Source: Clostridiales bacterium (GTDB taxonomy: Bacteria; Bacillota; Clostridia; Christensenellales; Borkfalkiaceae). Taken from it: a stretch of 64,000 nucleotides of DNA. Location of the stretch: positions 6,628 to 70,627 of the forward strand of contig SVHK01000001.1 of the NCBI GenBank assembly GCA_015055865.1, given 5' to 3'. Under the pieces are notes generated by a model. It was given only the letters and a program-made list of their open reading frames with translations. It did not search any database and was not told the origin of the DNA. Shown here piece after piece: positions 2,034 to 59,822 of the stretch. A program made the translations under genes and the position numbers. How positions within the stretch are numbered: position 1 is the first letter of the stretch; each line of letters opens with the position of its first letter.

Positions 2034-3470
2034 TTATTTAAAAAGTTCTGCAATCGCTAAAGTGATTTCCTTGTCCTTTTCGAACGATTGCGCGGAAGTT
2101 TTCGCGCCGTCTTCTGGTAATATCCCCCTACCGTGAATACAGTTACCGCTTTTCGGCCAAGTAATTTTCGCGGTAGTGAGTTTGATTGCGTCGGTATTGA
2201 AAAGCCCGAACGGGAACGTCGATTGCATAATCCCCTTGCCGTACGTTTTCGCCACGCCGTAGTTTTCTATTAAACAAATATCTGCGTAGGAAATCGCGCC
2301 GTAGTCGAGCATACAACCGATTAGACATTCGGACGCCGACGCCGTTCCGTCGTTAGCCAAAACTTTGATTTGGCTTTCCGAAGTGAAATACTTCGCGTAA
2401 ACGGAAGTTTTGGAATAGAACTGTTCCCTTTGTCCTTCCCGATACTGAGCGACCGCGATTAAACTCTTGCCCGTACTTCCCTTACAAAAATAGGACGCAA
2501 TTTCCTGCAAAATATCCATATATCCGCCACCGTTGTCGCGCAAATCTAAAACGAGATTGGTTTTTCCGTCCGTTTTAAACTGTTCCATTGCGCGAGTGAA
2601 CTCCGTCCCCGCGCTACCGTTGAACTGCGTTAAGCGGATATACGCGGTTTTATCGTCTAAACAAGATAACGGGTCGCCCTTTTCTTGCCATTCCGTCGCC
2701 TGTGCGCCCGTGAACGCGTAGGCGGTCGTATTCGTACGGTAAAACACGTAGTTTTCCACGAACGTGTCTTTATAAATCTCGACCGTTTCTATCTGTTCAC
2801 CGCGCCGTACTTTAATAAGGAACTTCTCGCCCTTCGTCCGTTCCTGTACGAACGCGTAGAACGCGCCGTATTTTTCCGAGTCGATTAACCATTCGTCAAT
2901 CAGTCCGTACCCGACGATATAATCCCCTTCGCGAATCCCGACCTTTTCAGCCGGCGAGTTACCCGATACCCTGCGTACGAGCATTATGGGATTCCCTGCG
3001 CTATCTTCCGTTAAGAAAGTAAGCCCTATTCCGCTCCATTCCCCCGTCGCTTCCGTAAGTGCCGACGCGTACTCGTCGGGGGTCATATATTGCGAATAGC
3101 TATCGAGCAAATCTTCGTTGATAGCGTCGAAGAGTACGCCGTAAAATTCTTCGTCCGTGATTTCTTCGTAATATTTGTCTTGGATTGCGTTTTTAATCTT
3201 TTGGAGCGTTCGCATCTCGCTATCGAACTGCAATGCACTCGCCAAATACCCAGCGAAAAACAACGCGATTGCCAACGCTACCGCTCCGAATTTTTTCCAA
3301 CCACCCCTTTTGCGTTTAGGTTGTTCGGTGGGGGCAGGGTCGGTTTGAACTTCGTTTGTCTTTGTTTTTTGGTCCGTTTCGTCTTGAATAGTTTTATCAA
3401 ACTCGTCGTTAAAATTTCTATCGTCTTGCAAGTTATACTCCTTTACGAAAAAAACGCGCCTTACGTTCAA
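2034..3470 (-). CDS. S41 family C-terminal processing peptidase with N-terminal TM anchor and PDZ
   Basis: It has an LVLDLRDNGGGY motif, a DGTASASE catalytic-Ser region, a PDZ-like GDYIV segment and an N-terminal hydrophobic helix. Confidence 0.9.
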   Translation of the reverse strand: MNVRRVFFVKEYNLQDDRNFNDEFDKTIQDETDQKTKTNEVQTDPAPTEQPKRKRGGWKKFGAVALAIALFFAGYLASALQFDSEMRTLQKIKNAIQDKYYEEITDEEFYGVLFDAINEDLLDSYSQYMTPDEYASALTEATGEWSGIGLTFLTEDSAGNPIMLVRRVSGNSPAEKVGIREGDYIVGYGLIDEWLIDSEKYGAFYAFVQERTKGEKFLIKVRRGEQIETVEIYKDTFVENYVFYRTNTTAYAFTGAQATEWQEKGDPLSCLDDKTAYIRLTQFNGSAGTEFTRAMEQFKTDGKTNLVLDLRDNGGGYMDILQEIASYFCKGSTGKSLIAVAQYREGQREQFYSKTSVYAKYFTSESQIKVLANDGTASASECLIGCMLDYGAISYADICLIENYGVAKTYGKGIMQSTFPFGLFNTDAIKLTTAKITWPKSGNCIHGRGILPEDGAKTSAQSFEKDKEITLAIAELFK

Positions 3471-3518
3471 CGCGTCTTTCGTAGTATTTAGCTATTTTGC
3501 TGTTTTTCTTTATTTTTC

Positions 3519-4845: not shown

Positions 4846-6498
4846 ATGAGTAACAAGTGTGTTCCCTCCGATGTTGAAGTCGAAGTTACCGCGACCGAAC
4901 CCGTTGTTGAAGAAGTCGTTGTAGCCGAAGAAACTCCCGTTGCGGAAGAAGTAGTCGTTGACGCAATCGTTGCAACCGAAACCGTTGAAACGCAAGTCGT
5001 CGAAGAAGGCAAGAAGGCTAAAAAATGCAAGAAAGAAAAGAAAGCTAAAAAAGAAAAGCCTTGCAAGAAAGAAAAGCCTAAGAAGGAAAAGAAAGTTAAG
5101 GAATGCAAATGCAAGAAGGAAAAGAAGTCTTGCAACTGTTTCTATTCCGTATTCTCCCTTTTACTTACTATTGCCACCGTTGTGTTGGTATTCGTATTAC
5201 CTGCATACGTTATCGGTAAAGGCAATAAACTTGTCGAAGGCGTTTCCCTTTTGGACGGCGCGCTTGGCGTACTTAAACTCAGCGACGTAACCGTTGCAAA
5301 CTCCGGTGTAGTTGCGCTCGTATATTCCGCGTTCTTATTGACCGTACCCGTTGCGCTCCTTACGTCCGTTGGTTTGACGTTTGCTTGTTTCGTATCTAAC
5401 AAAAACGCAAAATATTACGTTCGTGCAAACGCAATCGTAAACCTTGTCGTATTCTTCTTCGTTTCGATGGTTTCGATGTGCGCTTACAGATACCTTACCA
5501 ATAAGCCGAACGCAATTGAACTTGCTTCTCTTATTATTGCAGGTGTAAACGGCGTTGCTTATATCGCAATTAACGTTAAAGACTATAAGAAGGCTACGTT
5601 CCTTCCCACCGTACTTTGCGGTTTGTCTTTCGCTAACGTGCTTTACTATCTCTACGCTACCGTATACATGAACAAGAAGTTGACGATTGCTATTATGGGT
5701 CGTTCCCTTCTCCACACGGCTATGTATCTTGGTATCATTGCGTTCGTTTCGTTGATTTTCTTCTATTCTCTCGTTCGTATGAGCAAGAGCAAGACGACGG
5801 CCGTTGACCTTCTCGTTTACGTTGCAAACGCTATCTTTACCGTTGGCGTTATGTTCTTCGGCTTCTGCCTTATTACCGGTATGAGACCTTATGCGTTATC
5901 TCTTATCGCATCGCTCGTTATCGCAGTCGTTCAAATCGTAATTTGCGCAGTTTCCATCAACTACGGCAAGTTGATTGCAAAAGTTGAAGCACAAGTTCCC
6001 GTAGTAGAAGAAGTTGCAGAACCCGTAGTAGAAGAAGTAGTTGTAGAAGAAGTCGTAGAACCCGTAGCAGAAGAAGTTGCAGAACCCGTAGAAGAAGTTC
6101 TTGAAGCTGAAGCAGTAGAAGAAGTCGTTGAAGAAGACCTTCCCGAAGCTAACTTCGTTGAAGAAGAAGTTCAACCCGTTGAAGAAATTCCTATGGCTCC
6201 CAGATTCGCATCGAGCTATATGAGAGCAAGAGAAACCGCTCCCGCTCCTACCGCAACTCCTGCAGTTAGCGCATATGACTGGTTTATCGAATCTCTTAAC
6301 CCTGAAGAAAAGAATGAATTCGTTGAACTCTTCATCTTCAAGTATATCGGCGGTACGGCTAACCTTCCCGAATACGTACCCGGTGGAGATAACTATCAAT
6401 TCTTCCGTTCCTTCTTCGTAAATCTTGGTAAATATAGAAACCGCATCTCCGATACGCTTATCGAAAAGATGTATCAATTTATGACTAAGAAATACTAA
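4846..6498 (+). CDS. Polytopic membrane protein with acidic V/E repeats and a K/C-rich basic block; function unknown
   Basis: A 550-aa ORF with a good RBS and promoter. The order is an N-terminal acidic block (VVEEVVVAEE...), a basic block (KKAKKCKKEKKAKKEKPCKKEK...), about 9-10 hydrophobic helices, a second acidic block (VEEVAEPVVEEVVVEE...) and a C-terminal globular tail of about 100 aa. Confidence 0.75.
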   Translation: MSNKCVPSDVEVEVTATEPVVEEVVVAEETPVAEEVVVDAIVATETVETQVVEEGKKAKKCKKEKKAKKEKPCKKEKPKKEKKVKECKCKKEKKSCNCFYSVFSLLLTIATVVLVFVLPAYVIGKGNKLVEGVSLLDGALGVLKLSDVTVANSGVVALVYSAFLLTVPVALLTSVGLTFACFVSNKNAKYYVRANAIVNLVVFFFVSMVSMCAYRYLTNKPNAIELASLIIAGVNGVAYIAINVKDYKKATFLPTVLCGLSFANVLYYLYATVYMNKKLTIAIMGRSLLHTAMYLGIIAFVSLIFFYSLVRMSKSKTTAVDLLVYVANAIFTVGVMFFGFCLITGMRPYALSLIASLVIAVVQIVICAVSINYGKLIAKVEAQVPVVEEVAEPVVEEVVVEEVVEPVAEEVAEPVEEVLEAEAVEEVVEEDLPEANFVEEEVQPVEEIPMAPRFASSYMRARETAPAPTATPAVSAYDWFIESLNPEEKNEFVELFIFKYIGGTANLPEYVPGGDNYQFFRSFFVNLGKYRNRISDTLIEKMYQFMTKKY

Positions 6499-9521: not shown

Positions 9522-10615
9522 TATTCTACCCCCTTCTTGATTTTAGGCATACCTGTCCCTGTGCTTTCAAGGGTTTTCGTCAAAGGAATAGACGCTTTTG
9601 CATTCAAACTCATATCCGCAAAATTCCCTAATTTAAACTGTATAACCCCTTCCGAAGCAATCATCGCCGCGTTGTCGGTACAATAGCGTTTTTCGGGTAA
9701 AACGAGCTTAAATCCGCGTTGCTTGCATTGTTTTTGCAAGCTTTCACGAAGATAGGTATTCGCCGCAACCCCACCGCCGACGGTAATGGTGTCCACTCCT
9801 TTTTCTTCCCCTGCGTCGAGCGTTTTTTGAACGAGTACGTCCACCGCCGATTGTTGGAAAGACGACGCTACGTCCGATTTGGAATATTCTTCACCCTTTT
9901 GTTCTTTCGTATGGCAATAATTAATGACCGCGGTTTTCAATCCGCTGTACGAAAAATTATATCCACCGCCACCTTTGAACATTTTTGGAAACGAAATATT
10001 CGCAGTCCCTTCTAAAGCGCACTTTTCAATATTCGGACCACCGGGGTATTTCAAACCCAAAACTCTTGCAACTTTATCAAACGCCTCGCCTGCCGCGTCG
10101 TCGAGCGTCGAGCCGAGAATTTCAAACTCCGCTTCCGACTTCGCGTACAAAATCGCGGTATGACCACCGCTACAAAGTAACGTGACGAACGGGGGTTTTA
10201 ACGTAGGAGAATCCAAATACGCCGCCGCCAAATGACCGCGAATGTGATTGACGGCTATAAGCGGTTTATTAAGCGCGTAAGCAAACGCTTTCGCGAAGGA
10301 CACGCCTACGAGCAACGCGCCTAAAAGCCCTGCGCCGTACGTAACCGCTACCCCGTCTATATCCGCGTAAGTAATTCCCGCGTTTTTAATCGCGCGTTCC
10401 ACCACCGTCGCCACTTCGTCGGTGTGAACTCTAGACGCGATTTCGGGTACGACTCCGCCGTAGAGCGCTTGAATACTTGCCGACGACGCGATTTCGTCCG
10501 ACAAAATTTTCCTACCCTGAACGACGGCGGCCGCCGTTTCGTCGCAAGACGTTTCAATCCCTAAAATAATCGGGTCTTTTTTAGTTGTGTCAATCGTTTT
10601 TAAAGGTGTGTACAT
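9521..10615 (-). CDS. tsaD: tRNA N6-adenosine threonylcarbamoyltransferase
   Basis: It carries the N-terminal ILGIETSCDETAAAVV motif and Kae1/Gcp family signatures throughout. Confidence 0.95.
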   Translation of the reverse strand: MYTPLKTIDTTKKDPIILGIETSCDETAAAVVQGRKILSDEIASSASIQALYGGVVPEIASRVHTDEVATVVERAIKNAGITYADIDGVAVTYGAGLLGALLVGVSFAKAFAYALNKPLIAVNHIRGHLAAAYLDSPTLKPPFVTLLCSGGHTAILYAKSEAEFEILGSTLDDAAGEAFDKVARVLGLKYPGGPNIEKCALEGTANISFPKMFKGGGGYNFSYSGLKTAVINYCHTKEQKGEEYSKSDVASSFQQSAVDVLVQKTLDAGEEKGVDTITVGGGVAANTYLRESLQKQCKQRGFKLVLPEKRYCTDNAAMIASEGVIQFKLGNFADMSLNAKASIPLTKTLESTGTGMPKIKKGVE

Positions 10616-15054: not shown

Positions 15055-15298
15055 GAAACGCAACACAGTATTGCGACTGTTACAACGTCCAGCCGTCGTT
15101 AATTGGATAGCCGTACGCAAGCTAAGAAACGCAGAGCTTGACGTAGAAATGTGACGGTTATACAAGTAAGCCCGTCGCTTGGATAGAGAAGCAAGCAGTT
15201 CAAGAAGAGCGAGCATTTCCAACGGGAGCGTACTAGCCGTACGTGACCTAGGAAACGCGGAGCTCGACGTAGAAATGCGTAGCTTATATATTCAAGCC
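15055..15298. repeat. Modular intergenic repeat, locus A (two divergent M2-type units plus an M2 tail)
   Basis: It shares ...gagcgagcattt-c--a-gggagcgtac-loop-gtacg-gacc-a-gaaacgcggagctcgacg-ag-a-tgcg... with loci B and C. It lies between the comFC stop and the secA start. Confidence 0.7.
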
Positions 15299-15306
15299 TA
15301 ATATAA

Positions 15307-37937: not shown

Positions 37938-38068
37938 TTATTTCTCCTAATTTTCTAATTGCGACTTTTCGTCGCTCTACGCCTAACGGCGCGTAAACGC
38001 AATCGAAGATTGCTTTTTTATCTCTTCTTTCGTGGACTTTTTCCACTCCAACAGGACTTTTATTCCAT

Positions 38069-39079
38069 TTACTCAAATTGACTTATAAACCTAATATCGT
38101 TTTCGAATAAGGTTTTAATGTTGTTGATACCGTATTTAAGCATTGCGATACGCTCAACGCCCATACCGAACGCAAAACCCGTATATTCGTCGGGGTTTAC
38201 GCCACAGTTTTCAAGCACGTGGCGATTGACCATTCCCGCGCCGAGTACTTCAATCCAACCCGTACCCTTGCACAAACGACAACCCTTGCCACCGCATTCC
38301 GAACAACTCAAATCGACTTCTACGCTCGGTTCGGTAAACGGGAAATAAGACGGGCGCAAACGCACTTTGGTCGTTTCCGAGAACATTTTACGCGCAAACT
38401 CCGCAAGCATACCTTGCAAGTCGCAAAGCGTTATCCCCTTATCCACGACGAGTCCTTCCATTTGATGGAACATCGGCGAATGGGTCGCGTCGTCGTCCGA
38501 ACGGAATACTCTGCCGGGCGACAAAATTTTAATCGGGGGAGATTGTTTTTCCATCACTCGAATTTGCCCAGCCGAAGTTTGGGTGCGGAGCAAAAGATTT
38601 TCGGCGAGATAGAAAGTATCTTGCATATCCCTTGCCGGGTGGTCTTTCGGCGTGTTCAACGCGGTAAAGTTATAGTAATCCGTTTCGATTTCAGGGCCTT
38701 CGAAAACCTTAAAACCCATTCCTGCGAAAATGTCGATTAATTCGTTTTTAACGAGCGTAATCGGATGCAACGCGCCGTTTTTGCGATTTTTACCGGGCAT
38801 AGAAATGTCGATACGTTCCTTTTCGTACTTCGCTTGCATTTCCTTTTCGCGTACGACGATAGCGCGCAATTCGAACTTCTCTTCCATTGCTTGCTTGAAC
38901 TCGTTGACGATTTTACCAAACGCAGGTTTTTCTTCTTTAGGCAAATCTTTCATTCCGCCCATAATCGTCTTAAGCTCTGCTTGAAACTTGAGTTTTAATT
39001 GATACAACTCAGTTCCCGTCGCGGTTTTTTCCATTGCGAGCTCGATTTCGCTACGCAAGTTTTCAATTTTTTCTTTCAT
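38069..39079 (-). CDS. pheS: Phenylalanine--tRNA ligase alpha subunit
   Basis: Class II motifs are present ([46 protein letters not shown]). An AAGGAG RBS is present. Confidence 0.96.
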
Positions 39080-39132
39080 ATTTCGTAAATTCTCCTTAAG
39101 AATTTATTTATTTTTTGTAATTGTTTATGGTG

Positions 39133-39500
39133 GTATTACTCGTCAACTGAGCAACGTCCCGTTGCATCGAGTCTTTCTATCTTTCCGCTACGCTTGGGTG
39201 TTACCTACTCGTCAACCAACCAAGCCTGTGCTTGGCGTTAGATACGAGCAAGACAAGAAGAGCGAGCATTTTCGCAGGGAGCGTACTTAGGCGTACGCGA
39301 CCAAAACGCACGCAGTTGCGACAATTATACGATTAAGCGTTATAGCCGTGCTTGGCGTTAGATACGAGCAAGACAAGGAAAGCGAGCATTTTCGCAGGGA
39401 GCGTACTAAATCGTACGCGACCAAGAAAACGCGGAGCTTGACGCAGTATTGCGAAGTATATAACGTCAAGCGTTATAATTGCGACGGTTATACGATTAAA
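39133..39500. repeat. Modular intergenic repeat, locus B (M1 unit followed by two M2 units at a 120-nt period)
   Basis: M1 spans 39133-39225, M2 39230-39345 and M2 39350-39500. The two M2 copies share gcttggcgttagatacgagcaagacaag-a-agcgagcattttcgcagggagcgtac. The locus lies between the T-box terminator and the pheS RBS. Confidence 0.85.
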
Positions 39501-39504
39501 CATA

Positions 39505-39770
39505 TAAAAGCCCTGCGAGAAAAAACCTTTCCTCGCAGGGCGTTAAACCGCTGTACCACCTACGTTCGTACGATAAACCGTACCTTATTTTCGCAATTAC
39601 GTCGCGTAATACGTTCCTTCCTACTTGCTTAAAAAATAAGTTTCAAAAGGACAGCTCCAAAGCGAAACGGCGTTTTTCCTTTCCACACGCGATTTTCAGC
39701 CCACGACCGCGCTCTCTTTCGAAGAAAATCAACGAAAAACCCAACTTTTTCATAGCCTTTATTCGATTGT
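39505..39770 (-). promoter_or_regulatory. T-box leader (tRNA-sensing riboswitch) of pheST
   Basis: On the minus strand it has an AGAGAG box, the T-box sequence GUAGGUGGUACAGCGG (39564-39548) and the terminator CCCUGCGAG...CUCGCAGGG plus CUUUU (39540-39505). A UUC triplet is present in the stem I 3' side. Confidence 0.75.
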
Positions 39771-39776
39771 AAATTT

Positions 39777-39805
39777 ATTATACCTTTTTTTAAAAATTAA
39801 GTCAA
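39777..39805 (-). promoter_or_regulatory. Sigma-A promoter of the pheS T-box leader (TTGACT-17-TATAAT)
   Basis: On the minus strand the -35 lies at 39805-39800 and the -10 at 39782-39777. Confidence 0.65.
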
Positions 39806-39827
39806 CCGTTTTTTTAATTAAACCCCG

Positions 39828-40478
39828 TTATTTTTCAGCGTTCGCTTTCAAAATATCTCGGATTTCTTTCAAAAGAAGAACGTTTTCGTTCGCTTTTTCT
39901 TCCGCCAATCTTTTTTCTTCTTCCAAAGCCTTTGCTTCTTGCATTTCCTTTTCCGCTTTCTTGATTTCCGCGTCTTTCACGTCTTGCAAATATTTCGCTT
40001 TCGCTTCCGCTTTGCTCATTCCTTGCATTCTATATTCAAAAATAATTTTCTTGCGTCTATAAATCACCATTTGTTCGTCCGCAAACTTATCTTGCGCCGC
40101 CGCGATTTTATTAATAATCCGAACGATGGAAAAGAGCACGAACGCAATCAATAAAAAGTTAATAATCGAACTGATAAACGAGCCCCAATCGATATAAATG
40201 GAGTTCGCTAAGTCAATCACTTTCGCGCCCGTTTCGTCAAGCGTATAGGCGGGAGAAAGCATCGTAACCGCACCTTCCAAACCGTCTTTACCAATTAAAA
40301 TCGCAATCAACCAATTAATAACCGGCTTTAAAATAAAATTACTCATTCCGTTGACAATCGCCGTAAACGCACCGCCAACGATAACGCCGACGGACATATC
40401 CAACACGTTCCCGCGCGTAATAAATTTTTTAAATTCCGCAAAAAACAACTTCACTTTTTCGCCTTTCACTTTCGCCAT
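39828..40478 (-). CDS. mscL: Large-conductance mechanosensitive channel with a long charged C-terminal extension
   Basis: The N-terminus FKKFITRGNVLDMSVGVIVGGAFTAIVN is canonical MscL. The protein is 216 aa versus the usual 130-150 or so, with a K/E/A-rich tail. Confidence 0.85.
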   Translation of the reverse strand: MAKVKGEKVKLFFAEFKKFITRGNVLDMSVGVIVGGAFTAIVNGMSNFILKPVINWLIAILIGKDGLEGAVTMLSPAYTLDETGAKVIDLANSIYIDWGSFISSIINFLLIAFVLFSIVRIINKIAAAQDKFADEQMVIYRRKKIIFEYRMQGMSKAEAKAKYLQDVKDAEIKKAEKEMQEAKALEEEKRLAEEKANENVLLLKEIRDILKANAEK

Positions 40479-50619: not shown

Positions 50620-50862
50620 GAAGTATTGCGACCAAGCTCGTGCTTAATCGGAGAACCGAGCAACAACGTCCCGTTGTATCGAGTTTTTCTATCTTTCTTT
50701 TGCGGTTTGATTGTTCGCACTCGTAACTGACCAAAGCAGTGTTTAATCGGAGAACCGAGCAAGACAAGGAAAGCGAGCATTTTCGCAGGGAGCGTACTAA
50801 ATCGTACGTGACCAAGAAAACGCGGAGCTCGACGCAGTATTGCGACGGTTATACGATTAAGC
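50620..50862. repeat. Modular intergenic repeat, locus C (M2 tail, variant M1, variant M2)
   Basis: It shares the M1 core gagcaacaacgtcccgttgtatcgag..ttctatcttt and the M2 core gagcaagacaaggaaagcgagcattttcgcagggagcgtactaaatcgtacg with loci B and D. It starts 18 nt upstream of the uvrB ATG. Confidence 0.85.
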
Positions 50863-50865
50863 AAC

Positions 50866-50879
50866 CGAACATTCGTTTG
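50866..50879. promoter_or_regulatory. LexA/DinR (Cheo) box upstream of uvrB
   Basis: CGAACATTCGTTTG compared with the consensus CGAAC-N4-GTTCG has one mismatch. It lies 12 nt downstream of the -10 of the uvrB promoter. Confidence 0.6.
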
Positions 50880-54458: not shown

Positions 54459-54525
54459 GCAACGTTCCGTTGCATCAACTTTTTTTCTATCTTTTCGTTA
54501 CGCTAAAGCGTTGCTTATTCGTCAA
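54459..54525. repeat. Degenerate M1-type repeat unit, locus E (murF-ddl spacer)
   Basis: gcaacgttccgttgcatcaac-ttttttctatcttttcgttacgct---gcgttgcttattcgtcaa aligns with M1 of locus B (39151-39215) by eye. Confidence 0.55.
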
Positions 54526-58890: not shown

Positions 58891-58941
58891 AAAAACACTC
58901 CGAATATTTATTGCAAATACCCCTTGCGTTCTTTACGAACG

Positions 58942-59060
58942 TTCTTTTCTCATCCGGACTATACCGTCGGTTTTGGAATTTCACCAAATCGGGAAACGTT
59001 TAAAACACGTTTCTTCGCAGACTTTACTGCCGGTGGGGAATTACGCCCCGCCCCAAAGAA
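58942..59060 (-). promoter_or_regulatory. FMN riboswitch (RFN element)
   Basis: On the minus strand it reads GGGGCGGGGCGUAAUUCCCCACCGGCAGUAAAGUCUGCGAAG...CCGAUUUGGUGAAAUUCCAAAACCGACGGUAUAGUCCGGAUGAGAAAAGAA, which matches the conserved RFN core blocks. Confidence 0.87.
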
Positions 59061-59074
59061 TATTTACGATATTT

Positions 59075-59123: not shown

Positions 59124-59467
59124 AAAAACAACCCTATAGTCGCTCTTCCTGTAGGGAATTGCGACAACTAAATAAATCCTTACGGATTTGTGATATTCGT
59201 CTAACGACGAGTGATATTGCCTTTCGGCAGTTATATTCGCCTGACGGCGAGTTAAGGATTTATTTAATATAACTTTGGCGTAGCCAAAATATAACTGCTT
59301 GTAAAACAAGCAATACAACTTTTAGCCACAAGGCTAAAAATATAACTTATTAAACTTAATCTTTTGTGGATAAGAAAAGCCCACCATATTTCGCTTTTTG
59401 CGAAGTATAGTGGGCTATACTTTTGTTATGAACTAAAAATCCCTAAGAGCGACTAAGGGTTGTTTTT
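59124..59467. repeat. Inverted-repeat-bounded element containing a tandem array of mini-hairpins (MITE-like element or structured RNA)
   Basis: The terminal inverted repeats are aaaaacaaccct(a)tagtcgctctt (59124-59147) and aagagcgactaagggttgttttt (59445-59467). Inside are 3 units of GTGATAT plus hairpin (59190-59250), 4 units of ATAYAAC plus hairpin (59267-59375) and a 17-bp terminator-like hairpin (59378-59416). Confidence 0.6.
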
Positions 59468-59494
59468 CTTTTTTTAATTTGAGAGCATAAGCCT

Positions 59495-59822
59495 GCTTGG
59501 CGTTAGATACGAGCAACAACGTCCCGTTGTATCGAGTCTTTCTATCTTTCCGCTACGCTTGGGTGTTGCCTTCTCGTCAACCAAGCTCTTGCTTGGCGTT
59601 AGCTACGAGCAACAACGTCCCGTTGTATCGAGCCTTTCTATCTTTCCGCTACGCTTGGGAGTTGCCTTCTCGTCAACCAATTAAACTCGTGCTTGGCGTT
59701 AGATACGAGTAAGACAAGGCGTATTGAGTACGCCGACGGGAGTTTACTTTATCGTAAACGAGCTAGGCGCACGGAAATACAACGCAGTATTACGAAGTAT
59801 ATAACGCCAAGAGAACGTCAAG
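59495..59822. repeat. Modular intergenic repeat, locus D (two M1 units at a 96-nt period plus a divergent M2-like unit)
   Basis: M1 at 59495-59586 and M1 at 59591-59680 differ at 3 of the first 90 positions. A third unit starts with the same gcttggcgttagatacgag arm at 59691. The locus lies directly downstream of the histidine kinase stop. Confidence 0.85.

Follow-up and report, generated by a model that had tools for sequence, protein, structure and literature searches.

RAYT acts on REP sequences, TnpA acts on the ends of IS608, and IntI acts on attC sites; in each of these pairs an enzyme recognizes folded single-stranded DNA. The orientation of attC hairpins relative to replication controls their folding and excision (PMC5371416), and REP sequences within 15 nt of a stop codon have been reported to stall ribosomes and to lower expression (PMC12306157). 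Here we describe two kinds of repeat unit, designated M1 and M2, in a 64,000-nt stretch of the genome of a Clostridiales bacterium (GenBank assembly GCA_015055865.1, contig SVHK01000001.1, positions 6,628 to 70,627 of the forward strand). The whole stretch is referred to as the window in subsequent discussion. An array of these units lies in the leader of pheS, between the terminator of a T-box and the start codon. In its behavior M2 is closest to REP/BIME sequences, BOX/ERIC-type repeats, and attC sites. Our preferred interpretation, to which we give a probability of roughly 0.6, is that the array consists of non-autonomous, modular, hairpin-forming dispersed repeats that are carried as a passenger in the pheS leader, outside pheS control.

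Repeat units in the pheS leader

In the direction of pheS, the order of elements is promoter, T-box, terminator, about 425 nt of extra sequence, ribosome-binding site (RBS), and ATG (Table 1). The features that define the T-box class are present upstream of the array: a stem I with its specifier, an antiterminator versus a terminator, and a synthetase gene downstream. The match to Rfam family RF00230 is full length, yet its score of 71.5 bits is below the Rfam gathering score of 93. The specifier position reads UUC followed by a purine and is kept in four relatives. No promoter-like site was found on either strand between the terminator and pheS. Therefore, pheS expression needs read-through transcripts that carry the intervening array, which supports the statement of an earlier annotation made from the letters alone (the sequence-only reading) that every read-through pheST transcript must include it. 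The terminator hairpin is retained when the whole pheS leader is folded (-155 kcal/mol; z = -5.8).

The sequence-only reading had described the gap between the terminator and pheS as a set of modular hairpin-forming repeats, and this description is confirmed, as is the presence of the repeats elsewhere. Positions 39133 to 39501 hold one M1 unit, two M2 units (B1 and B2) 120 nt apart, and an orphan M2 arm. The unit coordinates and the 120-nt period proposed earlier were correct, except that the outer part of the second M2 unit is the separate orphan arm at 39478 to 39501. Every unit begins with GCTTGG and finishes with CCAAGC, and the junction hairpins (CCAAGC-nnnn-GCTTGG) that had been listed as a feature of their own are a by-product of these starts and ends. 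Unit B2 folds at -53.5 kcal/mol (z = -7.9). Just as had been reported, the two M2 copies have the same stem and different apex loops (TTAGGC and TAAATC on the mRNA strand). The conserved stem GCGTAC/GTACGC is also real, but it is not a short hairpin within the unit; the unit is one hairpin of about 125 nt.

Four further loci in the window (loci A, C, D, and E) contain the same modules, in every case on the + strand and in untranslated regions (UTRs) of minus-strand genes. Together with the pheS leader, the contexts are two 3' UTRs (A and D), two 5' UTRs (pheS and uvrB), and one intra-operon spacer. Locus D is flanked on one side by the stop codon of the histidine-kinase gene (59825) and on the other by a hairpin that has a T-run (near 59380 to 59430). 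With a covariance model of M2, five copies are detected in the window, none of them on the minus strand; the locus D copy scores 101 bits even though it was absent from the seed. No + strand promoter-like site precedes any of the window arrays. The + strand of the window has a negative GC skew throughout (it is C-rich), and most genes are on the minus strand.

The array is missing from close relatives

Strains and relatives were recovered through exact-protein look-ups. The gap between mscL and pheS is 748 nt here and 321 to 341 nt in relatives whose PheS is 85 to 88% identical. The leaders of these relatives consist of the promoter, a T-box with the UUC context, the terminator, 10 to 25 nt, the RBS, and the ATG. 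Thus, relatives with the same layout have no array, an observation of a kind that the sequence-only reading had listed among those that would refute its proposal, and the array is therefore not part of pheS regulation.

Where an array is present, its composition changes quickly. In a relative whose PheS is 93% identical, the array has another composition. Two strains with 90 to 95% DNA identity (L003 and L004) have half of another M2 subtype in place of the M1 unit and two additional M2 units that start directly after the pheS stop codon; L003 is also without the 30-nt arm duplication. These module swaps among strains, and the 5' arm that M1 and M2 have in common, bear out the earlier comparison with the mix-and-match modularity of BOX elements. 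Contigs of the same organism repeatedly stop or switch partner exactly at array borders. Look-ups for locus C returned identical strains or a contig break only, and look-ups for loci A and E returned no record. Judged from these comparisons, the pheS array is a late, lineage-specific insertion that is dispensable for T-box control and is quickly evolving.

The spacer between pheS and pheT (window 37938 to 38068) also varies in length. It is 132 nt here, 12 to 13 nt in the relatives with 85 to 88% identical PheS, and 284 nt, with two M2 units, in L003 and L004. By eye, the window spacer contains four or five small hairpins of about 15 nt that are unrelated to M1 and M2.

Fold and covariation of M2

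The roughly 125 nt of M2 form one imperfect hairpin, with the two ends of the module brought together at its foot; z scores for the + strand range from -5.4 to -7.9. Its apex is nearly invariant: GGGAGCGTACT, three or four variable bases, and CGTACG(T/C)GACC. The apex was found in more than 120 metagenome stretches among the matches listed, many of them human-gut contigs, in which the flanking arms are unrelated in sequence and always complementary. A covariance model built from 25 copies detected 135 copies in 100 sources, with a copy GC content of 0.40 to 0.74 and several copies per 10 kb in some contigs.

In the alignment of the 135 copies, 93% of cells were paired, compared with 60.6% after shuffling and 24 to 43% with slid partners, and 30 of 34 pairs, including two apex-helix pairs, had compensatory changes that altered both sides; fitting the alignment to the model somewhat inflates these figures. 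An independent analysis with MAFFT and RNAalifold gave compensatory change in 24 of 34 pairs. The stems of M2 thus covary beyond chance, a point on which the sequence-only reading had made its proposal depend. The helices outside the conserved features vary freely through compensatory change.

No Rfam family matched the repeat units, in agreement with the earlier impression that the modules are outside known RNA families: scans with Rfam 15 of the window at the gathering threshold and of positions 38900 to 40000 at E <= 10 returned only the T-box and three chance-level matches (E 4 to 6). The array had no blastn match among 72,556 plasmids and 50,697 phages, and neither the M1 nor the M2 pattern was found in viral contigs. 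All-against-all clustering of the 531 open reading frames (ORFs) within 3 kb of M2 copies yielded no recurrent protein family or transposase. Searches of the literature by sequence string and by topic, with incomplete coverage, found no description of M2. Coding repeats were rejected as an explanation because the unit lengths of tandem M2 arrays elsewhere (periods of 107, 137, 142, and 152 nt, a range of 107 to 152 nt) are not divisible by three and because the units vary symmetrically about the hairpin. A K-turn was rejected because there is no 3-nt bulge beside the G.A pairs.

In human-gut contigs, composites of about 384 nt that are almost identical adjoin five or more different genes. Another small hairpin repeat (CCCC...GGGGACCCC type, about 35 to 50 nt) is nested in the 3' arms of some human-gut M2 copies (contigs L045, about 1965 to 2010; L061, about 3435 to 3480; and L012, about 10380 to 10420). 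The composites, tandem arrays, and nested insertions point to recent amplification. In a contig of 74% GC, the gene beside the M2 copy has as its closest named relative a protein of a Chloroflexota metagenome-assembled genome (MAG), with 78% identity. Therefore, the M2 family probably reaches beyond Bacillota, as far as this neighboring sequence indicates.

Strand asymmetry of M2

The + form of M2 was more stable than its complement in 85 of 92 non-redundant copies (mean, -56.1 versus -46.8 kcal/mol), and in the four window copies tested it was also best when DNA energy parameters were used. Four conserved features belong to the + form: the apex helix GCGTAC/GTACG(T/C), a closing G.T wobble, a tandem G.A pair (GGGA...GACC), and a second tandem G.A in the internal loop CAAGGAA/TTGAC. 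The wobble closes the apex helix in 116 of 135 copies, with G-C in the remaining 19. It is the wobble and the two tandem G.A motifs, all absent from the complement, that account for the difference in stability. In the variable helices, G.T outnumbers A.C (121 versus 80) and purine-purine mismatches outnumber pyrimidine-pyrimidine mismatches (139 versus 54), although the model-fitted alignment slightly favors G.U. Because the surrounding + strand is C-rich, this excess of G.T and purine mismatches is not a mutational skew.

The strand optimized for folding, the + strand of the window, is antisense to pheS and to all neighbor genes and, by GC skew, is the leading-strand template. The mRNA strand is the complement. 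Each unit still forms a hairpin of -37 to -43 kcal/mol on that strand (z = -3.2 to -5.8), without the G.A and G.U motifs, which are replaced by C.U and A.C bubbles. The sequence-only reading had placed the array in the 5' UTR of read-through pheST transcripts. Since the better fold is on the antisense strand, the conserved structure was probably not selected within pheS mRNA.

Placement of M2 at gene ends

Genes located 3' of the + form converge on it in about four-fifths of cases. In 23 of 64 non-redundant elements, a converging ORF of at least 100 amino acids (aa) has its stop codon 45 to 54 nt from the apex, which corresponds to the foot of the hairpin; on the opposite side of the apex the same placement was found in only 4 of 64. 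Most stop-adjacent copies have the stop codon within the basal helix, and in one human-gut subfamily the M2 element itself supplies the sequence C TGA to at least six different genes. Judged from their C termini, the genes beside M2 are of ordinary kinds, many of them with high expression: groEL, efp, rpsU, rpsR, rplF, pnp, and pyrG. Gene strand and GC skew are confounded, and transcription and replication are not separable as causes of the orientation. No positioned -10 element was present upstream of 107 non-redundant copies, and only 19 of these had a T-run at the 3' foot.

The M1 unit

M1 shares its 5' arm (GCTTGGCGTTAGATACGAGCAA) with M2 and is closed by a different 3' arm. Its 34-nt core is nearly invariant: (A/G)CAACGT(C/T)CCGTTG(T/C)ATCGAG, two variable bases, and TTTCTATCTTTC. 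The mini-hairpin is GCAACG-TCC-CGTTGC at pheS and ACAACG...CGTTGT at 50664, 59517, and 59613. The compensatory change that the sequence-only reading had pointed out is therefore present, but one pair and one event in three closely related copies are weak evidence by themselves. The whole M1 unit folds no better than shuffled sequences (z = -0.4 to -1.8), and a double-stranded protein-binding site is as plausible for M1 as a structure.

The M1 core had no match in the metagenome collection, and among species-representative genomes it was found only in one sheep-colon Clostridia MAG, RGIG5595. In this genome the core occurs seven times in two contigs, on the G-rich strand, sense to the neighbor genes and together with other modules. 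Therefore, the orientation of M1 is not universal. The RGIG5595 arrays (L005, 1330 to 1620, 3500 to 3730, and 6250 to 6560; L006, 3730 to 4010) also have reiterated 11-mers (GGCAACGTTCC) and units ending in GTCATTGCGAG. Downstream of them, just upstream of start codons, is a block of small hairpins with a repeated ACTTCAC motif between the hairpins.

Comparison with known systems

REP/BIME sequences of Enterobacteria and Pseudomonas, which are mobilized by RAYT, are high-copy extragenic palindromes within transcription units, often a few bases from stop codons. M2 is likewise high in copy number, with five loci in 64 kb, and 23 of 64 elements have a stop codon at the foot of the hairpin. No protein recurred beside M2 in the sequence covered, which comprised 64 kb of this genome and fragments of about 10 kb from others. 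Both form mosaic arrays, and both have a conserved hairpin that is presumably read by a trans-acting enzyme. However, M2 is about 125 nt long rather than 20 to 40 nt, and its apex is flanked by GGGA...GACC without a GTAG head. M2 conserves the apex of one long hairpin, whereas REP conserves the whole stem, and tandem M2 units are direct rather than alternating. The hosts of M2 are Clostridia and other non-proteobacterial lineages. Identity with REP/BIME was rejected on the basis of size and the missing GTAG head.

The likeness to pneumococcal BOX (boxA-boxB-boxC), ERIC, and Correia elements is in modular construction, with shared terminal arms and exchangeable interiors, and in units of 100 to 150 nt that form long hairpins in untranslated regions and are co-transcribed; BOX was compared by modular logic only. 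There is no known sequence relation to these elements. Unlike them, M2 is strongly single-oriented, no TA target duplication was seen, and an invariant 25-nt apex is present in contigs whose GC content differs widely and that probably represent more than one phylum. Of the features typical of miniature inverted-repeat transposable elements (ERIC, Correia, and RUP among them), terminal inverted repeats are present in M2, where they span the whole unit, and a direct duplication was not seen at the junctions inspected.

With attC sites, such as the Vibrio VCRs of about 125 nt, M2 shares its length, the conservation of structure over stem sequence, and a strand that folds better than the other. 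In both, the foot of the hairpin lies against or overlaps the stop codon of the gene before it, and the orientation is fixed relative to replication. However, attC sites conserve the boxes at the foot (RYYYAAC ... GTTRRRY) and have a variable apex, and M2 does the reverse. In the window M2 copies the 5' arm has GTTAGAT and the 3' arm its partner, ATATAAC, an order opposite to that of attC whichever strand is read, and the GTT/AAC triplets are absent from other M2 subfamilies. M2 is also dispersed beside housekeeping genes or arranged head to tail, without cassettes or ORFs between the units. Thus, identity with attC was rejected because of the wrong box order and the wrong conserved region.

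The ends of IS200/IS605 elements and their non-autonomous derivatives, palindrome-associated transposable elements (PATEs), resemble M2 in having an imperfect, mismatched hairpin of about 22 to 26 nt as the likely recognition element and in a strand-specific logic of single-stranded DNA. However, where those elements have a sub-terminal hairpin at each end, M2 has one hairpin in its center; neither tnpA nor tnpB was found among its neighbors, and the folding strand of M2 is on the leading-strand rather than the lagging-strand template. An IS200/IS605-derived PATE was rejected because of the one central hairpin, the lack of a recurrent neighbor protein, and the leading-strand template.

Interpretation of the array

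If the units are passengers, as we prefer, the array would have entered the pheS leader in the present lineage, between the T-box terminator and the RBS, and would now be co-transcribed. The conserved M2 apex and the G.A loops may be what is recognized by a trans-acting enzyme that is specific for single-stranded DNA in its folded state. Copies would land in transcribed noncoding DNA at gene ends, often with the stop codon in the foot helix; insertion beside existing copies would build arrays, and recombination would then shuffle the modules. The orientation bias may come from strand-specific insertion or from the survival of copies whose folding strand is rarely exposed; for attC sites, the second principle has been demonstrated (PMC5371416). 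Persistence of copies where the folding strand is less exposed would explain the uniform orientation. For pheS, the array would be a tolerated and dispensable structured spacer, with a possible effect on the processing or stability of the read-through mRNA. Stop-adjacent copies may influence translation termination in the manner of REP sequences (PMC12306157).

Several observations weigh against this interpretation. Neither target-site duplications at the junctions inspected nor a clean pair of filled and empty alleles was seen. The 531 flanking ORFs included no transposase or recurrent neighbor protein, and the mobilizing enzyme is one that we infer. The folding strand is not the lagging-strand template predicted by the classical IS608-type model, and orientation relative to replication and orientation relative to transcription are inseparable here. 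Retention of the 25-nt apex in contigs of up to 74% GC exceeds the usual conservation of selfish elements and hints at a host-linked function. The tight stop adjacency (23 of 64 versus 4 of 64) could reflect a function in translation termination rather than an insertion preference. Stop-codon placement and conservation across diverse hosts are the features that the interpretation explains least well.

One alternative is that M2 is a cis-acting UTR RNA that benefits the host, with an mRNA hairpin that, like E. coli REP, blocks exonucleases, provides an RNase III site, or stalls ribosomes near the stop codon. It would tune expression of the upstream gene; in the pheS and uvrB leaders, its role would be in stabilizing or processing the 5' end. 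Each of the five window loci is within a transcription unit and in the same sense, hairpins in the mRNA sense retain considerable stability (-37 to -43 kcal/mol), the stop codon is at or in the foot helix of most stop-adjacent copies, and the neighbors are highly expressed housekeeping genes (groEL, efp, rpsU, rpsR, rplF, and pnp). There is also the REP precedent of ribosome stalling near stop codons (PMC12306157). However, the tandem G.A pairs and the G.T wobble exist only on the antisense strand and are C.U and A.C bubbles in the mRNA, close relatives have the same genes without the element, and copy number and composition differ among strains. We regard a cis-acting RNA as unlikely, if deserving of serious attention. 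Another alternative is that the units are expressed independently as + strand RNAs, either antisense or small RNA genes, that act as a protein sponge or as antisense regulators; the + form has purine-rich loops and an ACAAGGA motif that resembles CsrA sites. The + strand does fold better and bear the motifs, and tandem arrays are consistent with this possibility, but no + strand promoter-like site precedes the window arrays, the 107 non-redundant copies had no positioned -10 element and a T-run at the 3' foot in only 19, and the 3' foot runs into the converging coding region. Such RNAs are quite improbable.

It is also conceivable that the function is for the host but at the DNA level, with hairpins or cruciforms that bind a chromosome-organizing or replication-linked protein, in the way proposed for gyrase and IHF at REP/BIME, and with a polarity set by replication direction. 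The orientation is uniform over 45 kb of one replichore with constant GC skew, G.T accounts for only about 4% of pairs in the variable helices, and the + form folds best with DNA energy parameters too. However, genomic spacing is irregular, copies cluster at gene ends, presence varies among strains, there is no known binding protein, and orientation tracks transcription equally well. We find a chromosome-organizing role improbable. Least credible of all is the possibility toward which the sequence-only reading leaned, a second pheST-specific regulatory layer on read-through transcripts, such as a second sensor or translation control. Its position between the terminator and the RBS does place the array on every read-through transcript, but the same modules are found at unrelated genes (uvrB, the histidine kinase, and others), the composition varies among strains, and relatives with the same T-box and pheS have no array. 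The proposal is largely refuted.

Other features of the window

Contig L134 (from 3297 onward) joins the end of the locus D array (window about 59487) to the region upstream of rpsP-khpA-rimM rather than to the region with the Gut-1 RNA motif and the riboflavin transporter. This junction reflects either a second array upstream of rpsP in the species or a chimeric assembly at the repeat. The Gut-1 motif (RF01706, 59165 to 59241, + strand, 53.2 bits) is within a segment of about 340 nt (59125 to 59467) whose edges are 23-nt inverted repeats (59125 to 59147 and 59445 to 59467; 78% complementary), and strain contig L135 departs from the window right at one boundary of the segment. These observations suggest that Gut-1 rides on a small mobile segment. 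A flavin mononucleotide riboswitch (113 bits; 58938 to 59064, - strand) is upstream of the gene for an ECF riboflavin transporter, an ordinary arrangement. A 550-aa ORF at 4846 to 6498 (+ strand) has periodic repeats of 12 to 27 nt (GAAGAAGTxGTAGAA-like), especially at 5974 to 6174, and probably encodes a low-complexity repeat protein.

Table 1. Elements of the pheS leader and repeat loci elsewhere, in window coordinates
Feature	Position	Strand	Details
pheS coding sequence	38069..39079	-	ATG at 39079; RBS AAGGAG 39092-39097
M1 unit, pheS leader	39133..39228	+	mini-hairpin GCAACGTCCCGTTGC 39151-39165; conserved TTTCTATCTTTC 39174-39185; flanking direct repeat TACTCGTCAAC
M2 unit B1	39222..39341	+	3'-arm deletion; apex 39277-39302; covariance model 49 bits
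M2 unit B2	39342..39478	+	folding-optimized form on + strand; apex 39397-39422; covariance model 132 bits
Orphan M2 3'-arm fragment	39478..39501	+	locus C arm type (compare 3' arm 50840-50866); starts about 6 nt past terminator T-tract
T-box intrinsic terminator	39510..39541	-	14-bp stem and T-tract
T-box leader	39533..39762	-	UUC (Phe) specifier context; RF00230, 71.5 bits (gathering score 93), E 2.9e-15
Promoter-like site, pheS leader	39777..39805	-	sigma-70-like; TTGACT, 17-nt spacer, TATAAT
Locus A	15100..15304	+	partial M2 and full M2 (15169-15304); 3' UTR; stop codon 15307; terminator 14985-14963
Locus C	50630..50869	+	M1 (50630-50732) and M2 (50733-50869); uvrB 5' UTR; promoter 50920-50892; start codon 50602
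Locus E	54460..54525	+	diverged M1-like core; intra-operon spacer between two minus-strand genes
Locus D	59487..59819	+	two M1 (96-nt period) and one M2 (59683-59819); histidine-kinase 3' UTR; stop codon 59825

Implications

The long spacer between the T-box and pheS in this organism is explained as a repeat insertion rather than as added regulation, and the repeats of the arrays explain why contigs of the organism break or become chimeric at array sites. Copies of M2 abound in gut Clostridia, and the family extends to high-GC environmental bacteria; its covariation is as strong as that of a curated RNA family, and it is not in Rfam. An M2 model would improve repeat masking and the assembly of gut metagenomes. 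The invariant apex, the tandem G.A motifs, the strand asymmetry, and the stop-codon placement offer an entry point to a new hairpin-recognizing enzyme or to a layer of gene-end control in uncultured gut bacteria. Tentatively, and with the odds against us, we propose that M2 is an undescribed class of structured element, probably cross-phylum, that is read as folded single-stranded DNA (or as the antisense or cDNA strand) by a conserved enzyme and is positioned almost to the nucleotide at stop codons of genes with high expression. If this is true, M2 would represent a new hairpin-guided system of stop-codon-targeting mobility or gene-end marking, distinct from REP/RAYT, attC/IntI, and IS200/IS605.

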